Virus record (IMG/VR): IMGVR_UViG_3300043392_000054
Location: 32,001-96,000 of that record
Direction: 5' to 3' (one strand)
Source: a virus
Length of the DNA: 64,000 bases
Shown here: positions 1,181 through 29,502 of the stretch, piece after piece
Layout: every line of letters starts with the position of its first letter
How positions within the stretch are numbered: the stretch's first letter is position 1
Position numbers and translations under genes: made by a program
Notes under the pieces: model-generated
Told to the model about the DNA's origin: nothing
The model's input: the letters and a program-made list of their open reading frames with translations, nothing else
Databases searched by the model: none

Positions 1181-3043
1181 ATGGCATTACAAAGACTAAG
1201 AGATTTTTATCAAGCAACAAATAGCAATACATTTAATGAAATGTTAAAGCAAAAAGTTATTGTAACTGAGAAAATTGCTTCAACATCATTTCATGTTAGA
1301 AGAGGTTTAGAAGGATTTGAATATTTTAAATCTGGAAATACTGAACCAATGACAATGGTTGATAGAACTTTAACTTCATTATATGAAGTAGGAATTAAGC
1401 ATTTTCAAAGTCTTGTAAAAGATGTTAAAGAGGATATGCCAACTGATTGGAAATTCGGCTTTGATTATTTACCAGAGACTAATATTTCTTCTAGAATACA
1501 ATATGACCAAACACCATTTAATTTTATGATACTGTCACATATTCAAGTGATGACAAGTACTGGTAAAGTTAAAAAGGTTTTAACAGACCCTGTTGTTCTT
1601 AAAGAATGGGCTAATAAATTACAAGTACAAGCACCTACAATTATTTTTGAAGGTAATTTAGACCAATTACAAAAACAAGCATTGGTTAATTTATTATCGA
1701 CTTCAAATGAATCTTATCAAAAAAGATTTGCCAATGAGTCATTTACAAAACACGTATATAAATTATTTAATCCATCTGCATATAAATCAGTTCTTAATGA
1801 AGACTTAGAAAAACCAATTGATGGCTTAGTAATTAGCTTTATTGATTCTACGCAAATTAAGTCATTTAAATTAGATGAAGCATTAGAGCAACCTGAAGAG
1901 GTAAGAGAAAGCAGCCACATGTACCAATTAACAATGGTAGATATGCTAGAATATTTTTCTAATTACAATTTAGATTCAATCGAACTAGTAGAAACAGCTG
2001 CAGATAAAAGATATATTGAATTAGTTTCAACTATGTTTAATTCATACGTTAAAGAAAATGCAACCAAATATATCGGGGTTAATTTTAATTCTGCAGATTT
2101 TTCAAAATCCGAAATGTTTCAGCTAAATACAAAGTGGATTCAAAATGAAACAACACTAAGATACATTGAAAATCCTATTTTAGGAGAATTGTATAAAATA
2201 GTTTTAGGTTCATTTAATAAAAAGAAGATTAAAGAATCAACAATAATGAATCAAACTATGATTGAACAATTAAATGAAATTATTGACCAAATTGATGCAA
2301 AAATATACGCAGAACAAACTGATGAAAATGCAATTTATCAATTTAATCATTTCTTGTTAAAGAATAAAATTGCTGGAGCAAAGACAGACTTAAACGAAGC
2401 GCTTAAGATTGACTACCCAGAACAAGGAAAAGAAAAAGTTAATATATTTGTTGGTAGATTTCAACCATTCACCACAGGTCACGTAAAGGTCTTAGAAACA
2501 CTATACAAACAAAATGGGTATCCTGTAATTGTATTTTTAGTTAAAGCTAAAACTGCAAAAAAAGAGGATGCTATTAAAAGACCATACGATGTTGATACTC
2601 AAATAGAAATGTTTAATGCGGTTCAAAGAGAATACAAATTCTTAAAAGAAGTTATAGTTGTTCCATCTGCTGCGATTGACGTAATGTTTAATGAGTTAAG
2701 ACCTAAATATGAACCAGTTTTATGGGGCACAGGTACAGACCGAATGAAGGCATACGGTTATATGGTTAATAATGACAAATATAGAGATGAATTAGGAGTT
2801 CTTCCAGAATTTGGTCTTTATGAAATTCAAAGAGGCGACGATGATGTATCTGCTACTAAAGTTAGAAAGGCTTTAGAAGATGGAGATGCTAAAGAGTTTA
2901 ATAAAATGACACCTAATTCTTTACACTTTATGTTTGATGAACTAAAATCTAAATTAGAAGCTTCATTAGCTACATTAGAATCAATTGAAACAAATTTAGA
3001 TAATGATATACTAACATTTGAACAATTCATAACTAAACAATAA
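1181..3043 (+). CDS. Fusion of a degenerate ligase-like domain and an HxGH cytidylyltransferase/NMNAT-like domain
   Basis: N-terminal TEKIAS, IDGLVI, SFKL echo ligase motifs I/IV/V. C-terminal GRFQPFTTGH (HxGH-type) and DVSATKVRKAL (SxT motif). Confidence 0.7.
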   Translation: MALQRLRDFYQATNSNTFNEMLKQKVIVTEKIASTSFHVRRGLEGFEYFKSGNTEPMTMVDRTLTSLYEVGIKHFQSLVKDVKEDMPTDWKFGFDYLPETNISSRIQYDQTPFNFMILSHIQVMTSTGKVKKVLTDPVVLKEWANKLQVQAPTIIFEGNLDQLQKQALVNLLSTSNESYQKRFANESFTKHVYKLFNPSAYKSVLNEDLEKPIDGLVISFIDSTQIKSFKLDEALEQPEEVRESSHMYQLTMVDMLEYFSNYNLDSIELVETAADKRYIELVSTMFNSYVKENATKYIGVNFNSADFSKSEMFQLNTKWIQNETTLRYIENPILGELYKIVLGSFNKKKIKESTIMNQTMIEQLNEIIDQIDAKIYAEQTDENAIYQFNHFLLKNKIAGAKTDLNEALKIDYPEQGKEKVNIFVGRFQPFTTGHVKVLETLYKQNGYPVIVFLVKAKTAKKEDAIKRPYDVDTQIEMFNAVQREYKFLKEVIVVPSAAIDVMFNELRPKYEPVLWGTGTDRMKAYGYMVNNDKYRDELGVLPEFGLYEIQRGDDDVSATKVRKALEDGDAKEFNKMTPNSLHFMFDELKSKLEASLATLESIETNLDNDILTFEQFITKQ

Positions 3044-7155: not shown

Positions 7156-7180
7156 AAAAGGGCCGTAAGGCCCTTTTTCT
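7156..7180. terminator. Bidirectional intrinsic terminator
   Basis: AAAAGGGCC-GTAA-GGCCCTTTTT between convergent genes. Confidence 0.85.
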
Positions 7181-8239: not shown

Positions 8240-8539
8240 ATGAATATATTAGAACAAGCTAATAAAATTATTAATGAGCGTTCTGAAGAAAAAGAACGTC
8301 AATATGGTCCATTCGAAGAAGGTATGCGTAGAGCTGCCCAAATCGCCAGCGGTATGACTGGTAAAGATTTCACAGGAAGTGATATGTATGCTGCGCTAGT
8401 TGCATTAAAATTAAGCCGTCACTCTTACAACTACAAACAAGATAACTTATTAGATGCAGTAGCTTATTTAGGTGCTCTTGATAATTACGTTGAAAAATTT
8501 GGTTATAAAGAAACCGAAAAACCTGTTACTAATGAATAA
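8240..8539 (+). CDS. DUF6378-like small all-alpha protein (nucleotide-modification associated)
   Basis: ILEQANKIINERSEEKERQYG ... LKLSRHSYNYKQDNLLDAVAY pattern. Confidence 0.65.
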   Translation: MNILEQANKIINERSEEKERQYGPFEEGMRRAAQIASGMTGKDFTGSDMYAALVALKLSRHSYNYKQDNLLDAVAYLGALDNYVEKFGYKETEKPVTNE

Positions 8540-9611
8540 TCAAGAGTTTAAGTATTTTACAGACTATGTTACTGATAAAGATGCTAAAATCGGTATTTCA
8601 GCTCTTGTTGGTAAATTAAGCCCTAAAATCAGTTCACACAAATCAGCATGGTGTTTTATGCTTGCAAATCAATTAAGAAATGCAGGTTTTAAATACGTTG
8701 ATGTTATTACTACAACTGAAATCGAATGGAATAATTATGATGTTATTCTAATTGACCATGGTATGGAATTTAAAGGTAACTTCAATATTTTTGGAGGAGC
8801 TAACGATGATTTGTACCATCAACTAATTCGTATTAAAAGCAATGTTAAGATGTATAGTTTACATCATGATATGCCATGTATTGGTGCTTTAATCGAACAG
8901 CGTTTAAAAACAGGCACTGACTTATTTAAAACTTTAGAGCAAGATATTGATTTAATTAAAGATATTTGTGCAAATAATATTCCTAGAATAGACCACATTG
9001 AAAAGACAGATAAACTTTGTTTTGGTGATTCTCACTCATTTGGCATGTACCAAGCAGGTTATATGTGTCAGCGTCATGATGGTTTAACAATGCATGGAGC
9101 TCTTAAAAGAGGTTTAGATTCTTATGTATATCCATGGATTAAAACATTAACGTGTTATATGGGTAATATTGATGTTAGACATCATCTTATGAGACAACCT
9201 AATCCTAAAAATGCAGTTGAAATCATGATGAAAAATTATGAACAACAACTTAAAGCGTTACAAGAAAATGGTGTTACTAATATCGAACTAGTTCATGTTT
9301 TACCTATAGAAAATGAATCAAGAGTTTTACCAAAAACAGGGTACTATAAAGATACACCTTTTTATGGAACTTGGTTAGAGCGTACACAACTATCAAAGGA
9401 AATTAATAATGCAATTGACCTAATGTGTGAAAAAAATAAATGGAAAGTGTATAAGCACCCAGACGTTTATTTTAATGATAAAGGTGAATTGACATTTGAT
9501 GTAATGGAACAGCCTAAATCAGTACACATTTCAAGAGAATTTTACAGATGGGATATGGAAGCTAATTGTCCTAATAAGAAATTAGAAAAGAAAGTTACAT
9601 CTTTGTTTTAA
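8532..9611 (+). CDS. Two-domain protein with C-terminal SGNH/GDSL-like hydrolase or acyltransferase
   Basis: CFGDSHS (block I), YMGNID (block III-like), PKSVHI (block V-like). Start moved to ATG 8532, which overlaps the upstream stop. Confidence 0.6.
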   Translation: MNNQEFKYFTDYVTDKDAKIGISALVGKLSPKISSHKSAWCFMLANQLRNAGFKYVDVITTTEIEWNNYDVILIDHGMEFKGNFNIFGGANDDLYHQLIRIKSNVKMYSLHHDMPCIGALIEQRLKTGTDLFKTLEQDIDLIKDICANNIPRIDHIEKTDKLCFGDSHSFGMYQAGYMCQRHDGLTMHGALKRGLDSYVYPWIKTLTCYMGNIDVRHHLMRQPNPKNAVEIMMKNYEQQLKALQENGVTNIELVHVLPIENESRVLPKTGYYKDTPFYGTWLERTQLSKEINNAIDLMCEKNKWKVYKHPDVYFNDKGELTFDVMEQPKSVHISREFYRWDMEANCPNKKLEKKVTSLF

Positions 9612-9616
9612 GATAA

Positions 9617-10840
9617 ATGAAAATACAAACTACAAAGTATTACGAAGAATTTTTACATTATTTTGACCTTGCAACAAGACAACAAGCTCTTTGTAATTTA
9701 GGGACTGTTGGATATATGGAAAGCAATATGGGAGATGCTCTAATGGAGAACATTGAGTTATACGATGTTGTTGAACGTAAATTTGCAGGCTTTTCTCAAA
9801 TCGTAAATGACATTTTTTATGGTTGGACTCCAGAACATCCATATTGGGAAAAAATGAATGCAGGAATTCATACCTCTCAAAGAGAAGAAGTTGCAAAAAA
9901 TTGGACTGGAAAACAACAGATTTTTGGTTTAGAAGAATGGCTTTATCTTTTTATCTTACATAGAGTAACGGGTTCGGGTATTAATTATGCAACAAAACCT
10001 TCTGGTTACCATAACACTCTCTTGTTTCATTTGCATGAATGTGATACAATAGAACAAATGTGTGAAGTTGTTAAATCTCATCAATATCCTTTTTATACTT
10101 CAGTTGGTTATCAGTTTCCAGCTTTTCCTAAACCACCAGAAAATCAAACCAATACAGAAGATTTATTTGTTGGTATGACTGGTTTTTCTAATGAAGTAAC
10201 ATACACTTATAAAAGAGGTGGAGATTATTACTTATGTGAATTTGCACCAAGATTAGCTAGAGACTTAGCAACTTATTTAAGAACTGGTGAAAAGAAACAA
10301 CTTAGAGAATTAGGTGAATGGTTATTTCAATGGAACTATGATAACGGTTTAAGAGCTTATAGGTTTCAATATGCAGCAGTTATTGCAGATATTGCAGATT
10401 GGTACCCAGAATATGTTGTTAGAGAATCTATGTTTTATTATGGTACAAATGCAGTAGAATGTATTGGTTATCTAGCAGACCCAGAAGGTGGTAAAGGTAA
10501 TAAAAAAGGTGAAGAATTTTTAGATGCAGTAATGACTAAAATCTATAATGATACGGGTTCTTTGCCATATAATGCAGAAGATGTTGCATGCGACTATATT
10601 CGTTGGATTGAAAACTACTTAAGACCAGGAAAAGATTATGACCATGTAGATATGGATAATGTTTGGAATAGTAGCTCAATAAAAGACCACCCATTTGGTA
10701 GACAAAAGGCAATGTTAGACTTAGGTATAGTTAAAACATTTAACGGTTTGACTGCTCATCCATCAGATGATAAAATTTTAGTAGAAGCTGGGTTAACAGT
10801 TGAAAAATATAAAGAGATGGTTAAAACACTATACAAATAA
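9617..10840 (+). CDS. aGPT-pyrophosphorylase / amino-acid:DNA-transferase-like protein (HhH glycosylase fold)
   Basis: LFILHRVTGSG and FQYAAVIADIADWYP...FYYGTNA match the F...D...P...GxxA signature as I recall it; sits next to a PLP enzyme and dUTPase. Confidence 0.55.
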   Translation: MKIQTTKYYEEFLHYFDLATRQQALCNLGTVGYMESNMGDALMENIELYDVVERKFAGFSQIVNDIFYGWTPEHPYWEKMNAGIHTSQREEVAKNWTGKQQIFGLEEWLYLFILHRVTGSGINYATKPSGYHNTLLFHLHECDTIEQMCEVVKSHQYPFYTSVGYQFPAFPKPPENQTNTEDLFVGMTGFSNEVTYTYKRGGDYYLCEFAPRLARDLATYLRTGEKKQLRELGEWLFQWNYDNGLRAYRFQYAAVIADIADWYPEYVVRESMFYYGTNAVECIGYLADPEGGKGNKKGEEFLDAVMTKIYNDTGSLPYNAEDVACDYIRWIENYLRPGKDYDHVDMDNVWNSSSIKDHPFGRQKAMLDLGIVKTFNGLTAHPSDDKILVEAGLTVEKYKEMVKTLYK

Positions 10841-11892
10841 TGAATACATTGTTAGAAGATAATTTTATAAGACCAGATGCTTGCGAATTACCAAAGGCAA
10901 AAAAGAAGTATCAACAAGTCGAATCTTTATTTGAAGATGAAGGAGTTCATTATACCAATATTGAATATCCAAATACTTCTGAGGTTAAAATGAAAAATGG
11001 TAAACCCATTGAATCTTGGATGAAAGATTGGACTCAAGAAGAACGCTTTGATAAATTCTTTGAGTTTTGCGAAGCTTTTGATAAAAGACAAGACAAATTA
11101 TTAGCTGAAGATTATCAAATATTTTCACATAGATTACATTGGCATGAACATCCTTTTTGTGATTTAATGCAAAATGTGACAGACCCAATGAAACGACTTT
11201 GGTATACTCTAGTATTTTCATTTACTAATGAGCATTGGGGAACTTTAACAATGTTAATTAATGAAGGTGAAGAAGCTCTCAGAAAGCATTTTAAAGATAA
11301 CCGTCACGCTCGCAATGACTTGTTTCAGATATACTATCCTAAAGGCACAGATGTTAAGGAGTGGCTTTTATGGGGTCCCAAGAAAGCAGCTGAAAAAATG
11401 CATCATGTTTTAGAGAATTTAGACCGTCCATATACAATGATGGAATTTGCTAAAATCATGGAGAAGTATTTTAAAGAAGACCAAGATTTTAGAAGTCCTT
11501 TATACCCATGTAAAAATGCAGCTAGATATTTAGCTATGGCATACCCACATTTAATAAATCCAGAAACACCTTTATATGGTGGAACAGGACACTTTGACGG
11601 TATGCAACAAATTTTTAGTGGCTCTAATGTTAATGGTAAAGTTAAATACACTATTGGTAAAAATGGTGAATTTATCGCTGAGAATAAATATGCTGAGTTA
11701 TGGTTAGAACAAATGGAAACTTTAGTTAATCATCCTAAGAATCCAATGACTAGTCAAAAATGGTTAAATGTAGAAGATAAAACATGTTTCTTTTATAAGC
11801 ATATAGCTATTTCACATGGTGTTAAATCACCAACCAAAAGAATACCATATACCTGGATATTTCCAGAATCGTTTTCACTTAAAAAAGATTAA
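10840..11892 (+). CDS. Second aGPT-pyrophosphorylase / amino-acid:DNA-transferase-like paralog
   Basis: DKLLAEDYQIFSHR N-terminal block; ARYLAMAYPHLINPETPLYGGTG HhH-like block. Confidence 0.5.
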   Translation: MNTLLEDNFIRPDACELPKAKKKYQQVESLFEDEGVHYTNIEYPNTSEVKMKNGKPIESWMKDWTQEERFDKFFEFCEAFDKRQDKLLAEDYQIFSHRLHWHEHPFCDLMQNVTDPMKRLWYTLVFSFTNEHWGTLTMLINEGEEALRKHFKDNRHARNDLFQIYYPKGTDVKEWLLWGPKKAAEKMHHVLENLDRPYTMMEFAKIMEKYFKEDQDFRSPLYPCKNAARYLAMAYPHLINPETPLYGGTGHFDGMQQIFSGSNVNGKVKYTIGKNGEFIAENKYAELWLEQMETLVNHPKNPMTSQKWLNVEDKTCFFYKHIAISHGVKSPTKRIPYTWIFPESFSLKKD

Positions 11893-12777
11893 ATGTCACA
11901 TAATAATCACACAAAAAGCAGTTATAATCAAGACCTTAATTTAGCTTATCCTAATAGAGATTCTTGGTTAGAATTAGCTGGAGATTGGAAAGACCCATTT
12001 CCTGCACCTATTATTAAAGAACATGATGGATTTAATGTAGTTAGAGAAGATTTAATGGGCTTTGGTTCTAAATGTCGTTTTGGCGATATTTTAGTTTCAA
12101 CTTGTCAATCAGATACATTAGTCTATGTGCAACCTAGATATGGTTTTGCTGGAATTTCATTGGCTTATTTAGCTAAAAAATACAATAAGAAATTAGTTCT
12201 TTTTAGTCCAAGCCAAAAAGAAATTTCAGACCATCAAGCTATTTGTATTGAAAGAGGAGCAGATATGAGATTTCGTAGAATTGCTGCTATGCCAAATCTT
12301 AATAAGATTGCTGCAGATTGGGCAAGAGAAAATAATGCGTTCTTTATTCCATTAGGGTTAAGACACGAATTAGTTACAGCAGCTGCAGTAAAAGTTGCGT
12401 ATGACTTAGCACAAGAACATGGAGAACCTAAAGAAGTTTGGCATGCTATTTCAACAGGAGTTTTAGGTAGAGCTTTACAAATTGCATGGCCTAATGCAGA
12501 ATTTAATGGAGTAGCAGTCGCTAGAAACATTAAAGATGGTGAAAGAGGTAGAGCAACTATTTGGTCACATCCAAAAGAATTTAGTCAAAACGTATCAGAT
12601 GAGTTTATACCTCCATTTCCAAGTGCATTAAATTATGACGCTAAAGCTTGGGAATTTATGGTCAAGCATGGTAGAGAAGGAGCTTGGTTTTGGAATGTAG
12701 GAGGAAATCCTAAACCAGAAAGTGAAGAGACTAAACTACTTACAAATTCTCAAAGAGAATGGGGCGAAATAAGATAA
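11893..12777 (+). CDS. PLP-dependent fold-type II enzyme (hypermodification decarboxylase-like)
   Basis: VVREDLMGFGSKCRFG (PLP lysine), GFAGISLAYLA, AISTGVLG phosphate loop. Confidence 0.75.
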   Translation: MSHNNHTKSSYNQDLNLAYPNRDSWLELAGDWKDPFPAPIIKEHDGFNVVREDLMGFGSKCRFGDILVSTCQSDTLVYVQPRYGFAGISLAYLAKKYNKKLVLFSPSQKEISDHQAICIERGADMRFRRIAAMPNLNKIAADWARENNAFFIPLGLRHELVTAAAVKVAYDLAQEHGEPKEVWHAISTGVLGRALQIAWPNAEFNGVAVARNIKDGERGRATIWSHPKEFSQNVSDEFIPPFPSALNYDAKAWEFMVKHGREGAWFWNVGGNPKPESEETKLLTNSQREWGEIR

Positions 12778-12795
12778 TTCTTTTCTTAATATACA

Positions 12796-12823
12796 GAAAC
12801 AATCAATCAAATTAGCATATAAC
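12796..12823 (+). promoter_or_regulatory. Putative middle promoter (dUTPase/polymerase)
   Basis: GAAAC-N17-TATAAC. Confidence 0.6.
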
Positions 12824-12838
12824 TTTTAAAATAAAATT

Positions 12839-13306
12839 ATGGCAAATATAGACAATGAATGCAAAGACTTAGAAGTTAATGACTTCTATGACCAGTCGGC
12901 AACACACTTAGCAGATATTATGGAGCATCAAAAAGAGATGCAAGAGAAAACTTATGGTATTAAGTTTGAAGATATGACTATTCGCGAAGTAATGAATTTT
13001 TGGCATGTAAATACACATGCTGTAATTGATGAGATTCATGAAATGACAGATGCTTTAGGCGGTATTAAAGATGGTGATGGTAATGCTGTTTGGAAATATT
13101 GGAAAAAAGCTCATACTAAATATGAGACTATGAAAATTTCAGACCTTTCAGAAGGAGATAAGAAAGAACTCTATATGGAATGGGTTGACATCTTACATTT
13201 CTTTATTAATTATGCAGCTTCAATTGGCTTAGACGCCAAAACAGCTTATAATTATTATTTTACAAAAGCAGCAGAGAATAAAGCGCGTCAGGCCAGAGGT
13301 TATTAA
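12839..13306 (+). CDS. Dimeric all-alpha (MazG-like) dUTPase-family pyrophosphatase
   Basis: DEIHEMTDAL and MEWVDILHF acidic ExxE/ExxD motifs. Confidence 0.75.
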   Translation: MANIDNECKDLEVNDFYDQSATHLADIMEHQKEMQEKTYGIKFEDMTIREVMNFWHVNTHAVIDEIHEMTDALGGIKDGDGNAVWKYWKKAHTKYETMKISDLSEGDKKELYMEWVDILHFFINYAASIGLDAKTAYNYYFTKAAENKARQARGY

Positions 13307-13323
13307 TATTAAATAAATACAAA

Positions 13324-14745
13324 ATGCTATTAGACATTGAACAGAAAGAAAAAGAAGTTATCGTATCATATTATAATAAAGAGGGAGAAGTAGCATTTAA
13401 GCGTTATCCAATTGCGCAATTTAAAAATTGGCATGTATGCAATGCATCTGATAAAGATGCAAATCAAAAATTCAAAAACTGGGATGGTAGAGGAGTTAAG
13501 CTATTACCTGGCAAACAATTTAATAAGTTTTCATTAGTGTATTTCATGGATAATTTACCTGAAAAGGATAAAGAAGAAATCTATGAGTTTAATATGCCGA
13601 AAACTTATTTTATAGATATTGAAACCGAAATCGTAGACGGTTTCCCTAAAGCTGAAGATGCTAAGTCTAGAATTTTAGCATTTTCAATTATTACCCCTAA
13701 TAAAAAAGCAATCGTACTAGGATTAGAAGACTTAGCGTCTGATAAGATTAAAAAAATTGAAGACGATACCAATGAGTACTTTAAGCAATTTGGGGATGAA
13801 TGGACTTTTCAATATATGAAGTTTAAAACAGAATATGATATGTTATATACATTTCTGTTTAAATTAATGCCTAAGTTTCCAATGATGACAGGTTGGAACT
13901 TTATTAATTATGACTGGAAATATATCGTAAATCGTTGCAAGCGTTTACAGATTGATTTAACTGATGCAGCAGTTACAAAATCTCTAGATAAAGAGGATTC
14001 AAGACCACTTCACATGGGTATTCTTGACTACATGCAATTATATGATAAATATGACCGTTCGGTTAAAGTTAAAGAATCTAACACCTTAGATTTTGTTTCT
14101 AGTCAAATCTTAAATATGAACAAAATCAAATATACTGGTTCATTACAAGATTTATATCGAGATAATTTTACAAAATATATTTACTATAACGTTGTCGATT
14201 CAGTTTTGGTTTATTATATTGACCAAAAAATTAAATCAATGGAGGTATTAATTACCTTAGCTACTATAGCAAAAATGCCTTTATATAAAGCAGCATCTCC
14301 AGTAGCTTCAACAGAAGCCCTAATCGCTAGAAAATTAGTAGATGACGGTAAACGTATTGGTACTGAAGCTAGAGAAGATAATAAAAAAGATTCTAAATAT
14401 GCTGGAGCATTTGTTAAGGAACCTATTGTTGGTTTCTATGAAGGAGTTTCAGCGTTTGACTTTGCATCCCTATACCCATCGATTATGCGACAATTTAATA
14501 TTTCGCCAGATGCATTTATAGAAAAAGTTCAACCTTCTCAAATTGAAGAAAAAAGAAAAGATAAAAATATTATTGTTTGTGAAAATGGAGTAGTTTATAA
14601 TAAAGAAGACTCAATCTTAAAAAAAATATTATCAGATTTATATGGTCAAAGAAAGCATTATAAGAAGCTCTCGTATGAATTTTATACTAAAGCCGAAGAT
14701 TTAAAAAAGAAAATTTTATTAGCTGAAAAACAGATTAATAATTAA
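13324..14745 (+). CDS. Family B DNA polymerase, N-terminal subunit (gp43A-like: exonuclease plus motif A)
   Basis: FIDIET (ExoI), GWNFINYD (ExoII), YNVVD (ExoIII), SAFDFASLYPSIM (motif A); stops in the fingers helix. Confidence 0.9.
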   Translation: MLLDIEQKEKEVIVSYYNKEGEVAFKRYPIAQFKNWHVCNASDKDANQKFKNWDGRGVKLLPGKQFNKFSLVYFMDNLPEKDKEEIYEFNMPKTYFIDIETEIVDGFPKAEDAKSRILAFSIITPNKKAIVLGLEDLASDKIKKIEDDTNEYFKQFGDEWTFQYMKFKTEYDMLYTFLFKLMPKFPMMTGWNFINYDWKYIVNRCKRLQIDLTDAAVTKSLDKEDSRPLHMGILDYMQLYDKYDRSVKVKESNTLDFVSSQILNMNKIKYTGSLQDLYRDNFTKYIYYNVVDSVLVYYIDQKIKSMEVLITLATIAKMPLYKAASPVASTEALIARKLVDDGKRIGTEAREDNKKDSKYAGAFVKEPIVGFYEGVSAFDFASLYPSIMRQFNISPDAFIEKVQPSQIEEKRKDKNIIVCENGVVYNKEDSILKKILSDLYGQRKHYKKLSYEFYTKAEDLKKKILLAEKQINN

Positions 14746-17993: not shown

Positions 17994-18020
17994 AGCCCGT
18001 CAGCAATGTCGGGCTTTTTT
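17994..18020 (+). terminator. Intrinsic terminator
   Basis: AGCCCG...CGGGCT followed by a T run. Confidence 0.75.
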
Positions 18021-18038
18021 AATATAAACATTTCATAT

Positions 18039-18710
18039 ATGATTATAGATGTAAATCAATTTAAAAACTCCGGTTACATTAGATTAGAAAACGTAATATC
18101 TATAAATGATGTAGATATTGTAAGACAAATTGCTTTAGATTTTAAAAATGAAATAATAGACAATAATTTATTAGGTACACCCAAAAAAATAGGCGTAGAA
18201 AGATATTGGAGAGGTCTAGATATGGCAAGTACAATGTCACCTAAATTATATGAATATTATACATCTAATATAATGTATCAAATTGCAACATCTTTATTAG
18301 AAACAAACGAGATATATCTTTTTAATGACCAGGTGGTAGTCAAACTACCAAATGAAGAATTTGAATTTGTTGAACATACTGATAATTCTTTTGGCCCAAA
18401 TAATCAAATGGCACTTAATAATGAATTTAAAACAATTACATGCTGTTGGGTCCTTGATGATTTTAATTTAGAGAATGGTCCTATTAGTATTTTAGATAAA
18501 ACTAGTAGGGAGTGGAAATTACCTTTACCTAAAAGAGGCGACATTATAATATGGGATGGAAACACAATTCATAAATCTAGTAAAAATATTACTAATCTAG
18601 AAAGATGCGTTTGGCTATGTGTTTATTCGACTACAAATCTAAAACAAATAAAGAATTTATCTACTGCAAGTTTCGACACTTTTTATGGAGATAGATTTTA
18701 TCCTTCTTGA
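18039..18710 (+). CDS. Phytanoyl-CoA-dioxygenase-like (PhyH) 2OG-Fe(II) oxygenase
   Basis: EHTDNS (HxD), TCCWVLDD, GDIIIWDGNTIHKS, RCVW. Start placed at MIIDV. Confidence 0.75.
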   Translation: MIIDVNQFKNSGYIRLENVISINDVDIVRQIALDFKNEIIDNNLLGTPKKIGVERYWRGLDMASTMSPKLYEYYTSNIMYQIATSLLETNEIYLFNDQVVVKLPNEEFEFVEHTDNSFGPNNQMALNNEFKTITCCWVLDDFNLENGPISILDKTSREWKLPLPKRGDIIIWDGNTIHKSSKNITNLERCVWLCVYSTTNLKQIKNLSTASFDTFYGDRFYPS

Positions 18711-18761: not shown

Positions 18762-19508
18762 ATGAAAGTAACAATCTCGAAAGTTGACCAGAACTCGTTT
18801 ATCACGTTCGTCAATCGCCTCAAAGTTATCGACTCATTCATTTACTTTAAGATTAAAGATGGAAGAGTTATCTCGTCTGCTTATTTGCCACAGCGCGATG
18901 CAGTAAAGCACCACATTGTTCCAGTTGATGAAATTTTTGTATTAGACTCAAAAATTGAAACGACTAAAGAGCTTAAGGTTGCCTTTTTTGATGCTGCTAA
19001 GTTAATCGAAGCATTTAAACAATTTGAATATGATGCTATTCAAGCTGAAATCGAATTCGTTGAAAATGAAGATGATTTCGTTGCATCGTCATTCAAGATT
19101 TTTAATGATGAATTAGAAATTACATTAGCTTGTTCAGAACCATCTTTAGGTTTCAAAGACTTAACAGAGTCTCAATTACAAACTATCTTTAATACAGATG
19201 GAGCTGATGTTACATTTGATATGTCGCATATCGAAATTTCTAAAATCAAGTCATTATTTGGTTTAGATAAAGATGAAACCTTTACAATTTCATCATCTAA
19301 AGAAGGTGTACGCATTAAAGGTAAATCTTATAATAAATTAATCAATACTACTAGCGCTGCTAAATCAAATGCAGTTATTTACAAGAAGTATTTAAACCTT
19401 TTTGACAAAGAAGATTATGCAGCAAATGTATTCTCAAATCGCGTAGTGTTACGCTCTAAAGATTCAAATACATTGTTAACAATCGCAACTTGTCAATCAG
19501 CTGATTAA
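18762..19508 (+). CDS. Probable DNA sliding clamp (gp45/PCNA-like)
   Basis: 248 aa, two-fold alpha/beta repeat pattern, translationally coupled to the polymerase C-subunit. Confidence 0.55.
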   Translation: MKVTISKVDQNSFITFVNRLKVIDSFIYFKIKDGRVISSAYLPQRDAVKHHIVPVDEIFVLDSKIETTKELKVAFFDAAKLIEAFKQFEYDAIQAEIEFVENEDDFVASSFKIFNDELEITLACSEPSLGFKDLTESQLQTIFNTDGADVTFDMSHIEISKIKSLFGLDKDETFTISSSKEGVRIKGKSYNKLINTTSAAKSNAVIYKKYLNLFDKEDYAANVFSNRVVLRSKDSNTLLTIATCQSAD

Positions 19509-20707
19509 TGATAGAAGAATTATTAAATAAACCAGAATCAGATTTAACACTTGATGAAATGAAAACCTTGGCAGAATTCTACTCGCGAGAATCTGCCAAG
19601 TTTACAGCTTATGAACAAGCAGTTAAATTAATGCTTAACTCTATTTATGGTGCATTTGGTAACCAGTGGTTTCACTTCTTTAATATCGATATTGCTGAAT
19701 CTATCACATTACAAGGTAAAAATGCTATCTTATATGCTGAAAAGATTTTAAACAAATATATTCAAGAATTCTTTTATAAGGATACTGAATTACATAAGAA
19801 ATTAAATATTAAGGTTAAAGGTCCAACACATAAACCTGCAGTTATCTACATCGATACTGATTCAAACTATGTTCAGTTTCAGGACATGTATGAATCAATT
19901 CAATGGTTAGATGAAACACAGAAGATGGACATCGTAACCTTTATTTTAACAGTTTATGATATTCGTTTAAAGGATTATATTGTTAAAGCATTAGACAAAT
20001 ATGCAGATGGCACAAATACAGATTCATTCTTAGTGTTTGAACTAGAATCAGTAGCATACTCTGGCATTTGGATGGCTAAGAAAAAGTATTTACAAAATTT
20101 AGCATGGGACGATAAGATTTCAACAGCTGAAAGACATAAAATGCTTAAGAAGGTTAAAACAGTTGGATTCGATACTATTCAATCTTCAACACCAACCTTT
20201 GCTAGAAAAAAATTAGCAGAAGCATTACAAATTCTTTTTGAAAAGAAGCCAACACCTGAAACATTAATGGTAATAATTTCATTCTTAAAAAAGGCTAAGA
20301 AAGAATTTAAGATGGCAAGCGTTGATGATATTACATTCAATAAGAGAACTAATAATATTGAAAAATATATTGTTGATGACCACGGTACATTTGAGTTTGG
20401 CTTAAAATGTCCGCCTAATGTTAAAGCTGCTGGATTTTATAATTACCTAATGAATAATAATTCAAAATACAAATCTAAGTATAGAATGATTAATAACGGT
20501 GAAAAGCTAAAAATATACCACACAACACACAATATTTGTGAAGTTTTTGGCTATCTTCCAGGAGACCATCCTTATGAATTTGCACCTGAAATAGATTATG
20601 AAACTCAATTTGAAAAATGTATTATTGACCCGTTAAATAGAGTTTTAGATTGCGTAGGTTTACAAACATTAAATAGAAATTTAATTTATTCATCAACATT
20701 ATTTTAA
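19508..20707 (+). CDS. Family B DNA polymerase, C-terminal subunit (gp43B-like)
   Basis: KLMLNSIYGAFG (motif B), YIDTDS (motif C), KKKY. Confidence 0.9.
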   Translation: MIEELLNKPESDLTLDEMKTLAEFYSRESAKFTAYEQAVKLMLNSIYGAFGNQWFHFFNIDIAESITLQGKNAILYAEKILNKYIQEFFYKDTELHKKLNIKVKGPTHKPAVIYIDTDSNYVQFQDMYESIQWLDETQKMDIVTFILTVYDIRLKDYIVKALDKYADGTNTDSFLVFELESVAYSGIWMAKKKYLQNLAWDDKISTAERHKMLKKVKTVGFDTIQSSTPTFARKKLAEALQILFEKKPTPETLMVIISFLKKAKKEFKMASVDDITFNKRTNNIEKYIVDDHGTFEFGLKCPPNVKAAGFYNYLMNNNSKYKSKYRMINNGEKLKIYHTTHNICEVFGYLPGDHPYEFAPEIDYETQFEKCIIDPLNRVLDCVGLQTLNRNLIYSSTLF

Positions 20708-28609: not shown

Positions 28610-29017
28610 GTGAATCAAGAAAAGTCAGAAAAACCAAAAGCTCTCAGAAAGAAGAACTATTTAAACAATGCAGATTTTTACGCTGCAATAGTTGCTTCTA
28701 AAGAACAAGATAAGTTAACTAGAGATGCTGAGAAAATGTTAATTTTATTGGCTCAAAAAGCTATCAATAAAATGAAATACGTTGATGAAAAGGACAAAGA
28801 AGATTGCTTACAATTTGCAATTCTTGACCTTTTAAAATATTGGCGTAATTTTAATCCTCAGTATACAAATGCTTTTGCTTATTTTACAGAAATTGCAAAG
28901 AAAGGTTATGCTAAAGGTTGGAACGCAATTCATCCCTTAAAATATAAAGGAACCTTATCCATCGATAGAGCTGGTAGAAAGGATGGAGAAGATGGAAGTG
29001 GTATTTATACAATCTAA
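28610..29017 (+). CDS. Late-transcription sigma factor (gp55-like)
   Basis: KKNYLNNADF and NAFAYFTEI blocks typical of gp55; GTG start. Confidence 0.8.
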   Translation: MNQEKSEKPKALRKKNYLNNADFYAAIVASKEQDKLTRDAEKMLILLAQKAINKMKYVDEKDKEDCLQFAILDLLKYWRNFNPQYTNAFAYFTEIAKKGYAKGWNAIHPLKYKGTLSIDRAGRKDGEDGSGIYTI

Positions 29018-29502
29018 TGTCAATTAAAAACGTTAAACCTACTAAAAACTCTGGTTTTAATCAGGGTTATTTTAATCCACATAATCCACAAAAATATGTT
29101 GGTCCATCTCCTATTATTTATAGGTCATCATGGGAACGTAAATTTATGATATGGTGTGATTCTAATGAAAAGGTTTTAATGTGGTCTAGTGAACCTATTC
29201 AAATAGAATATCATTCTAGACAAGATAATAAGAAGCATAATTACTTTCCAGATTTTTATATGAAAGTATTACAAGCTGATGGTAAAATAAAAGAATTTTT
29301 AGTTGAAATTAAACCAAGTGCTCAAATACAAAAACCAGAACCTCCTAAAACAAAATCTAAAAAAGCAGTAGATTCATATAGATTTTTAGCAGAACAGTAT
29401 GTTAAAAATATGGATAAATATACAGCTGCTAAAGCATATTGTCTTAATAGAAATTGGAATTTCATAGTTCTAACTGAAAAATCAATCAATGGCTTACATT
29501 AA
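29017..29502 (+). CDS. Head completion nuclease (gp4-like, TnsA endonuclease fold)
   Basis: YRSSWERKFMIWCD, WSSEP, YFPDF, VEIKP. Confidence 0.88.
   Translation: MSIKNVKPTKNSGFNQGYFNPHNPQKYVGPSPIIYRSSWERKFMIWCDSNEKVLMWSSEPIQIEYHSRQDNKKHNYFPDFYMKVLQADGKIKEFLVEIKPSAQIQKPEPPKTKSKKAVDSYRFLAEQYVKNMDKYTAAKAYCLNRNWNFIVLTEKSINGLH

Follow-up and report, generated by a model that had tools for sequence, protein, structure and literature searches.

To our knowledge, all biochemically described amino acid and polyamine hypermodifications of phage DNA affect thymine, with a DNA kinase acting at the start. The 5-hydroxymethylcytosine (hmC) pathway of the T-even phages relies on the dCMP hydroxymethylase gp42, the dCTPase gp56, the kinase gp1, and alpha- and beta-glucosyltransferases. 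The thymidine clusters of phages M6, PaMx11, ViI, PhiW-14, SP10, and SH-Ab 15599 combine a dUMP hydroxymethylase, the kinase 5-HMUDK, transferases of the aGPT-Pplase2/AADT/DADT type, a pyridoxal phosphate (PLP)-dependent decarboxylase, and other tailoring enzymes. An hmC carbamoyltransferase pathway of uncultured phages has as its companions a hydroxymethylase of the thymidylate synthase (TS) family, PRA-PH/MazG, and a dCMP deaminase (MetaGPA, PMC8670742). Here, we describe an operon at positions 8240 to 13306 of a 64,000-nucleotide stretch of viral DNA (the window), which covers bases 32001 to 96000 of the linear IMG/VR record IMGVR_UViG_3300043392_000054 (182,829 bp, about 64% complete according to CheckV). 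On balance, we favor the view that this is a postreplicative hypermodification operon of the AADT type that has been retargeted to hmC and dispenses with the customary DNA kinase; a decorated cytosine that still awaits chemical description is probably present in the virion DNA.

The operon comprises six plus-strand genes with spacings of 7, 5, -1, 0, and 61 nucleotides (nt), followed after another 17 nt by the gene for the N-terminal half of a family B DNA polymerase (PolB) (Table 1). A gene-by-gene comparison of 80 related viral contigs from IMG/VR distinguished two lineages, A, to which the window belongs, and B (L059 to L083). In lineage A, the gene for the small DUF6378 protein (ORF3) is followed by those for the SGNH protein (ORF4), the AADT-like ORF5, its optional paralog ORF6, the PLP enzyme (ORF7), the gp56-like pyrophosphatase (ORF8), and the N-terminal half of PolB; in lineage B, ORF5, ORF6 where present, the PLP gene, and the SGNH gene are arranged in a different order and then followed by UvsX. 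ORF5 is the best-conserved gene (63 to 93% identity across both lineages), and the SGNH gene is present in 75 of the 80 related loci, the PLP gene in 64, DUF6378 in 56, and ORF6 in 47. As these genes co-occur in 80 related contigs, the run goes far beyond chance; it is confirmed as a genuine, closely spaced cluster found in at least 80 contigs. The conserved block opens with DUF6378, immediately 5' of the SGNH gene, and the lineage B clusters of L071 and L083 have DUF1599 ("nucleotide modification associated domain 1") in its stead.

An original prediction, made from the sequence alone, had proposed a tightly coupled run that included a DUF6378-like gene, and both were borne out, as were its fold-type II PLP enzyme, which clearly belongs to the M6 gp52 family though its score against the PALP model is subthreshold, and its SGNH domain, presumably called from the GDS motif, for which the fold and the catalytic residues were found. 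The two genes that it took for AADT-like proteins with a helix-hairpin-helix (HhH) fold stand, ORF5 by fold and motif and ORF6 by profile comparison and motif, although neither matches the ADDT model; the HhH-glycosylase/AADT fold is present in ORF5. PolB does begin 17 nt downstream of the gene predicted as a dimeric dUTPase directly before the polymerase, but the protein is rather a homolog of the T4 gp56 dCTPase/dUTPase.

The evidence for a transferase comes from structure and motif. ORF5 and ORF6 have no match in Pfam (even at E = 10), PHROG, or PDB sequences, and tblastn against 50,697 phage records found none; their homologs in marine metagenomes form 952 and 471 clusters, respectively, and ORF4, ORF5, and ORF6 are each represented by hundreds of clusters at 90% identity. 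A profile search of 1.8 billion representatives yielded 160 sequences related to ORF5, the most distant at about 24% identity, and the AlphaFold2 (AF2) model made from their alignment has a predicted local distance difference test score (pLDDT) of 92. The top PDB match to this model among the Foldseek candidates is 8z2n, the 5-phosphomethyldeoxyuridine (5-PmdU) glycinyltransferase gp46 of PaMx11 (Z 10.4, root mean square deviation 3.7, 212 residues); in a search without the Foldseek prefilter, 8z2m, also PaMx11 gp46, ranked first of 48,161 PDB representatives (Z 9.4). The next 13 PDB matches all belong to the HhH-GPD superfamily (DUF2419, AGOG, Mag1, AlkA, Endo III, OGG), with unrelated chains at Z 5 or below. 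In BFVD, the top match is annotated as an AADT domain, and the nearest neighbors are annotated as AADT domain, Pplase1, or 5-hydroxymethyldeoxyuridine (5-hmdU) kinase helical domain.

In the published structures, catalysis is ascribed to a conserved Cys together with a metal, which is bound by a Glu-Thr pair located four residues before the Cys (PMC11472151, PMC13458397). The motif E-[T/D]-x-x-C lies near the C terminus in ORF5 (E321-D322-V-A-C325), ORF6 (E312-D313-K-T-C316), and M6 gp51 (E243-T244-V-L-C247); PaMx11 gp46 carries E243-T244-x-x-C247, and ORF5 and ORF6 have Asp for Thr. Within the ORF5 and ORF6 families, the E-D-x-x-C residues are either invariant or conserved to 90% or more, with E312, D313, and C316 of ORF6 invariant, and a profile comparison aligned the two families across the region of this motif (hhalign, 89%, E = 2.4e-6, 129 columns). 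We accept ORF5 and ORF6 as two divergent AADT-like paralogs, by fold for ORF5 and by motif for both.

How remote these proteins are from the characterized transferases is evident from sequence models. A six-frame search of the genome with the ADDT model PF18724 found nothing (the control, M6 gp51, matched at 1.4e-46), and none of 49 diverse relatives of ORF5 scanned against Pfam matched ADDT or HMUDK_hel; a hint from ESM-Atlas, in which 11 to 36% of neighboring clusters carried ADDT/HMUDK_hel families, was not reproduced by HMMER. There was no signal between the ORF5 or ORF6 family and the single sequence of M6 gp51 in hhalign, and the ORF5-family hidden Markov model (HMM) found nothing in M6 gp51. 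The lack of a Pfam ADDT match would suit an explanation in which the HhH proteins are glycosylase-like enzymes of repair or antidefense, or enzymes acting at the nucleotide level, in a loose nucleotide metabolism module; glycosylases score Z 8.0 to 6.3, not far under gp46, the fold of the queuine salvage protein DUF2419 scores Z 8.4, and genes for ribonucleotide reductase (RNR) and the polymerase are neighbors. We nevertheless regard this explanation as very improbable, given that the transferase-specific E-x-x-x-C metal/Cys motif is kept in both paralogs, that a PLP enzyme of the gp52 family is a constant partner, that a hydroxymethylase gene directly adjoins the operon in lineage B, and that the BFVD neighbors are annotated as AADT or 5-hmdU kinase helical domains.

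ORF7 scores 25.9 bits against the PALP HMM, where the cutoff is 35 and M6 gp52 itself reaches 39.5 bits; it matches phrog_7093 (E = 1.7e-39), and an HMM of ORF7 orthologs finds M6 gp52 (E = 1.8e-9). G-S-K-C-R of ORF7 aligns with F-S-K-I-R of M6 gp52 (PLP-lysine motif G-S-K-x-R), and the two share the C-terminal signature PFPxxxYDxKAW...FWNxG. M6 gp52 is a PLP-dependent decarboxylase of amino acid:nucleobase conjugates (PMC8989533). ORF8 is related by tblastn to gp56 of CC31 and of more than 300 T4-like phages (34 to 35% identity over 97% of its length, E = 1e-20), with a match to phrog_173 and a weak one to dUTPase_2. PLP-like homologs of ORF7 (34 to 35% identity) were also noted in gp1 of Erythrobacter phage vB_EliS_R6L (L002), midway in an 810-amino-acid (aa) ParB-like/DNA methyltransferase fusion, and in Microcystis phage Mae-JY30 (L003:6995-7705), as a 236-aa gene product encoded directly 3' of two ParB/sulfiredoxin genes; each carries the annotation "DNA modification methylase," which places the PLP-like family in other DNA modification contexts.

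ORF4 has no match in Pfam, including to Lipase_GDSL. Its orthologs begin at the ATG at 8547, and the listed GTG at 8472 overlaps ORF3; the residue numbers used here follow the 379-aa frame from 8472. The AF2 model (pLDDT 88) consists of an N-terminal alpha/beta domain of no assigned family (residues 34 to 170, approximately) and a C-terminal SGNH/GDSL domain. Foldseek against the PDB returned GDSL lipases and sialate esterases (probability 1.0, E = 4e-5), and an unfiltered structural search with residues 175 to 368 (approximately) gave Z scores from 13.7 (2hsj, 4rsh) to 9.4, the top 50 matches all being SGNH proteins. In 23 sequences, fusions included and down to 30% identity, G185-D186-S187 (GDSHS), G231-N232-I-D234 (GNID), and H352 are invariant; the Asp of block V (DxxH) is not evident, and E346 is a nearby invariant acid.

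In distant relatives (P0274, P0283, and others), the ORF4-type SGNH protein and an ORF5-like domain form one polypeptide, which argues that the two proteins act together. In these fusions, the SGNH part lies N-terminal to the HhH domain, the place held by the kinase in 5-HMUDK. A comparable architecture occurs in a cultured phage: ORF233c of Aeromonas phage 44RR2.8t (L092:6004-8391, phrog_17781), a 795-aa hypothetical protein with homologs in phages 31, 25, Riv-10, and others, resembles ORF4 over its N-terminal 330 residues (30 to 34% identity, E = 1e-50) and has a weak HMUDK_hel match toward its C terminus (E = 0.0036), so that SGNH and HhH-like parts are arranged as in the fused relatives. 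Unlike ORF5, however, its C-terminal domain has no E-x-x-x-C motif and is undetected by the ORF5-family HMM, and no PLP gene is annotated next to it. Further ORF4 homologs were found in three Tenacibaculum and two Stenotrophomonas phage records. ORF4 is a candidate either for a replacement of the kinase step or for a tailoring esterase or acyltransferase.

Neither PF18748 (HMUDK_HMUD1) nor PF18723 (HMUDK_hel) has a match (E 1 to 10) in the 64%-complete record itself or in the relatives G001 to G005, which include records of 99% (G001), 91% (G003), and 88% (G002) completeness; the control, M6 gp54, matches PF18748 at 7.7e-18. AAA_33-type matches in the relatives are confined to clamp-loader-sized proteins and are subthreshold. 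Two P-loop proteins of this genome considered as kinases, one of 127 aa (AAA_33) and one of 238 aa (Zeta_toxin/AAA_33, shared with Pelagibacter phage HTVC008M), were rejected as distant from the operon and without a kinase family match. That no 5-hydroxymethyluracil (5hmU) kinase is recognizable in the window, as originally predicted, therefore extends to the record and to near-complete relatives, and the alternatives put forward, a modified pyrimidine of a new kind or another route of activation, still hold, with no kinase, an SGNH enzyme, and two paralogs.

C5-methyltransferases can displace the hydroxyl of hmC with thiols in vitro. It is conceivable, and somewhat doubtful in our view, that the pathway proceeds on hmC without any activation, the Cys transferase displacing the hydroxyl directly and the SGNH protein serving downstream as an esterase, amidase, or acyltransferase. 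The absence of the kinase from near-complete relatives is compatible with this, as are the esterases and O-acetyltransferases (PatB, OatA) among the SGNH relatives and the late tailoring step carried out by the PaMx11 acetyltransferase; consecutive pathway enzymes, moreover, are often fused in such clusters. The SGNH gene, on the other hand, is more constant (75 of 80 loci) than the PLP gene (64 of 80) and is present even where no PLP gene is seen (L067, L068, L078), so that, given its constancy with ORF5, a core step fits better than tailoring; its position N-terminal to the HhH domain also mirrors the kinase-HMUDK_hel architecture.

The likely base is suggested by relatives and by the gp56 homology of ORF8. 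In lineage B, genes for a MazG/PRA-PH NTPase, DUF1599, a TS-family protein, and a dCMP deaminase lie directly upstream of the operon, and this TS-family protein (L071, L083) is 57 to 65% identical to the T-even dCMP hydroxymethylase gp42 (Salmonella phage S16, Citrobacter phage Moon, and others). In lineage A, a TS-like protein that has diverged further is encoded by the relatives L084 and G004; its gene in L084 is 3 kb from the operon. In an RSxD-anchored alignment, the position of Asn177 of Escherichia coli TS is Asp in gp42 and in the proteins of L071, L083, L084, and G004; the SP10 and M6 dUMP hydroxymethylases and this genome's own TS have Asn there. The Asn/Asp switch is reportedly an established determinant of uracil versus cytosine specificity, from work in the Graves, Hardy, and Santi laboratories. 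It is also cited in PMC8670742. The gp42-type or Asp-bearing hydroxymethylases in relatives and the gp56 homolog in the operon together make hmC, rather than hydroxymethyluracil, the more likely precursor as judged from sequence, and they argue against the 5hmU substrate of the original prediction. As it had stated, no hydroxymethylase is found in the window; the genome-wide search that it recommended gave no dUMP hydroxymethylase, dCMP deaminase, or 5hmU kinase in the 64%-complete record, whereas relatives have a gp42-type hydroxymethylase and a deaminase. No Tet/JBP T-dioxygenase that could be a source of 5hmU was found. The hydroxymethylase block of G004 and L084 (RNase H-like, ClpA/B-like, TS-like, ClpP) is wholly absent from the record; presumably it belongs to the third of the genome that the record does not cover. 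The 668-aa neighbor of the TS-like gene in L084, considered as a kinase, proved to be ClpA/B-like.

Several points weigh against a kinase-less, cytosine-directed AADT-type pathway. The 182.8-kb record (64% complete) contains no dCMP hydroxymethylase or dCMP deaminase, and its sole TS homolog is a canonical Asn-type ThyA (PPCH, FNIAS); for this genome, cytosine is therefore assigned from relatives and from the homology to gp56, and gp56-family enzymes are annotated as hydrolyzing dUTP too. Every characterized AADT/Pplase2 enzyme acts on 5-PmdU, none on cytosine (PMC8989533, PMC13458397). ORF5 and ORF6 lack a match to PF18724 even at E = 10; a Z score near 10 is not high for a protein made of helices; the equation of Cys325 with the catalytic Cys of gp46 is made by sequence motif rather than by superposition; ORF6 is tied to AADT by its profile comparison with ORF5 and its motif; and the part of the ORF4 SGNH domain in the pathway is one that we infer.

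Some of these points would favor a thymidine pathway, with the AADT-like enzymes placing a substituent on 5hmU in DNA and the PLP enzyme doing the tailoring: the described transferases all work on 5-PmdU, gp56-type enzymes are also dUTPases, and the cytosine-type hydroxymethylase is missing from the record. The lineage B dCMP deaminase, which makes dUMP, adjoins the hydroxymethylase gene, but because T4 possesses both gp42 and such a deaminase, this enzyme is not diagnostic of either route. We consider a thymidine pathway unlikely, as the linked hydroxymethylase is 57 to 65% identical to T-even gp42, the divergent hydroxymethylases keep Asp, unlike the SP10 and M6 dUMP hydroxymethylases with their Asn, and there is neither a Tet/JBP T-dioxygenase nor a 5-hmdU kinase.

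From the gene content, folds, motifs, and synteny, the linkage of a cytosine-type hydroxymethylase in relatives, and the absence of the kinase families, we infer the following chemical steps and final base for a pathway on hmC. A dCMP hydroxymethylase encoded outside this incomplete record would make hm-dCMP, and the gp56-like ORF8 would destroy dCTP and dUTP so that hmC enters the DNA. ORF4 might supply the equivalent of the kinase step, most likely by acylating the hydroxymethyl group to give an ester rather than a phosphate leaving group; alternatively, it might tailor the product. Its production of the leaving group appears most likely because it is the obligate partner of ORF5 and holds the N-terminal position of the kinase in the fusions; late tailoring by ORF4, or direct displacement of the hydroxyl, would be about equally possible. 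ORF5 would then flip the base and, with a divalent metal bound through E321/D322, attack C6 with Cys325, as in Pplase2 enzymes, expel the group on the 5-CH2-O, and add an amino acid or amine. ORF7 would decarboxylate or otherwise trim the appended amino acid, and ORF6 may be an optional second transferase for another donor or sequence context. The most novel form of this scheme, in which the SGNH enzyme esterifies hmC (acyl activation), the Cys transferase puts an amino acid in place of the ester, and decarboxylation by the PLP enzyme yields a new class of aminoalkyl-cytosines widespread in marine T4-like phages, is a tentative suggestion that may well not hold.

The source of the DNA is an uncultured marine T4-like phage. 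The GC content is about 30%, almost all genes are on the plus strand, and the backbone is T4-like, with UvsX/RecA, a DnaB-type helicase, Mre11/Rad50-like proteins, a gp15-like tail sheath stabilizer, a class I RNR, and a family B polymerase. The original prediction placed the phage in Bacteroidota, and the clues to the host are divided: the best match of the TS is from a Flavobacterium phage, but other genes are nearest to those of Pelagibacter and Methylophilales myophages. The PolB halves lie about 4.8 kb apart, with the small and large RNR subunits and three small genes between them; this split with intervening RNR is kept in lineage A relatives, and in lineage B both halves are adjacent.

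Table 1. Genes of the operon and the adjoining polymerase gene (window positions)
Feature	Position	Strand	Basis
ORF3, DUF6378 small protein	8240-8539	+	Pfam PF19905, E = 3.5e-11
ORF4, two-domain SGNH-fold protein	8547-9611	+	AF2 model, structure matches, invariant residues
ORF5, 407 aa, remote AADT (aGPT-Pplase)-like HhH-fold protein	9617-10840	+	Structure match, motif
ORF6, 350 aa, second, optional AADT-like paralog	10840-11892	+	Profile comparison, motif
ORF7, 294 aa, fold-type II PLP enzyme, M6 gp52 family	11893-12777	+	HMM, motifs
ORF8, 155 aa, all-alpha nucleoside triphosphate pyrophosphatase, T4 gp56 homolog	12839-13306	+	tblastn
PolB N-terminal half	13324-14745	+	Pfam DNA_pol_B_exo1, DNA_pol_B
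PolB C-terminal half	19508-20707		

Other features of the surroundings were noted. A strong bidirectional terminator-like hairpin (positions 7156 to 7177; 9 bp, 5 GC pairs) 3' of a DUF3008 gene probably delimits, on its upstream side, the transcription unit to which the operon belongs. Between the PolB halves, positions 18006 to 18710 encode an Fe/2OG dioxygenase of PhyH-like type (Pfam E = 2.6e-8, from the C-terminal motif only); as none of the 80 related loci has a counterpart, it was rejected as a component of the conserved set. The gene at positions 1181 to 3043, about 7 kb upstream of the operon, encodes a 620-aa protein whose C-terminal domain is cytidylyltransferase-like and is conserved in lineage A (29 loci); in one lineage B contig, a small cytidylyltransferase-like gene (L083:8899-9315) lies between the hydroxymethylase gene and ORF5. 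Nucleotidyl transfer could be another route of hydroxyl activation. A protein with a TnsA-like endonuclease N-terminal domain (positions 29017 to 29502; Pfam E = 1e-20), encoded among structural and replication genes, may be a homing endonuclease.

Outside the window, record positions 127846 to 133105 hold a second candidate modification cluster. It encodes a 435-aa canonical-type TS with large insertions (57% identical to the TS of Flavobacterium phage immuto), unassigned proteins of 196 and 247 aa, a 268-aa GDSL-like protein unrelated to ORF4, and, 2.3 kb from the TS gene, a 555-aa NodU/CmcH-type carbamoyltransferase whose nearest homologs (about 30% identity) are those of HTVC008M and cyanophages. 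A phage enzyme of the NodU/CmcH family makes 5-carbamoyloxymethylcytosine (PMC8670742). The carbamoyltransferase was rejected as a conserved partner of the operon, being absent from five related operon-bearing records. Record positions 109990 to 124098 (L085) form an RNA repair/NAD salvage island, with a NAMPT-like phosphoribosyltransferase, two HAD_SAK_2 proteins, two RNA ligases, an N6/N4 DNA methylase, a Methyltransf_24 protein, and the 127-aa AAA_33 P-loop protein.

In full-text searches of the literature, we found thymidine pathways, T-dioxygenases, a diaminopropane-thymine pathway, and the hmC carbamoyltransferase, and no description of an AADT-like or SGNH system on cytosine. If our proposal is correct, a cytosine-directed, kinase-less version would represent both a new base and a new activation chemistry for DNA modification, would explain resistance to restriction and CRISPR nucleases in an abundant group of uncultured marine myophages, and might provide enzymes for the site-selective derivatization of hmC in vitro. 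The fused homolog in the cultured Aeromonas phages 44RR2.8t, 31, and 25 offers an experimental entry point.

Compared with the thymidine clusters, the operon has in common an HhH transferase with a Glu/Thr(Asp) metal site and a Cys, a gp52-type PLP gene directly downstream, a pyrophosphatase that would clear a canonical deoxynucleoside triphosphate, a site among replication genes, and fusions of pathway enzymes. It differs from them in lacking a P-loop 5-hmdU kinase and HMUDK_hel, with a two-domain SGNH protein in that position, in having two paralogs too remote for the ADDT model, and in that the linked hydroxymethylase is of the cytosine type and the NTPase of the gp56 type. With the T-even pathway it shares the gp56 homolog within the operon and the T4-like backbone, and in the sister lineage a gp42 homolog and a dCMP deaminase adjoin the operon; the decoration set, however, is AADT-like plus SGNH plus PLP with no glucosyltransferase, and gp42 was not found in the incomplete record. 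The hmC carbamoyltransferase pathway of uncultured phages likewise decorates hmC postreplicatively, as proposed for this operon, and has the same companion genes, whereas its chemistry and enzyme family differ from those proposed here.

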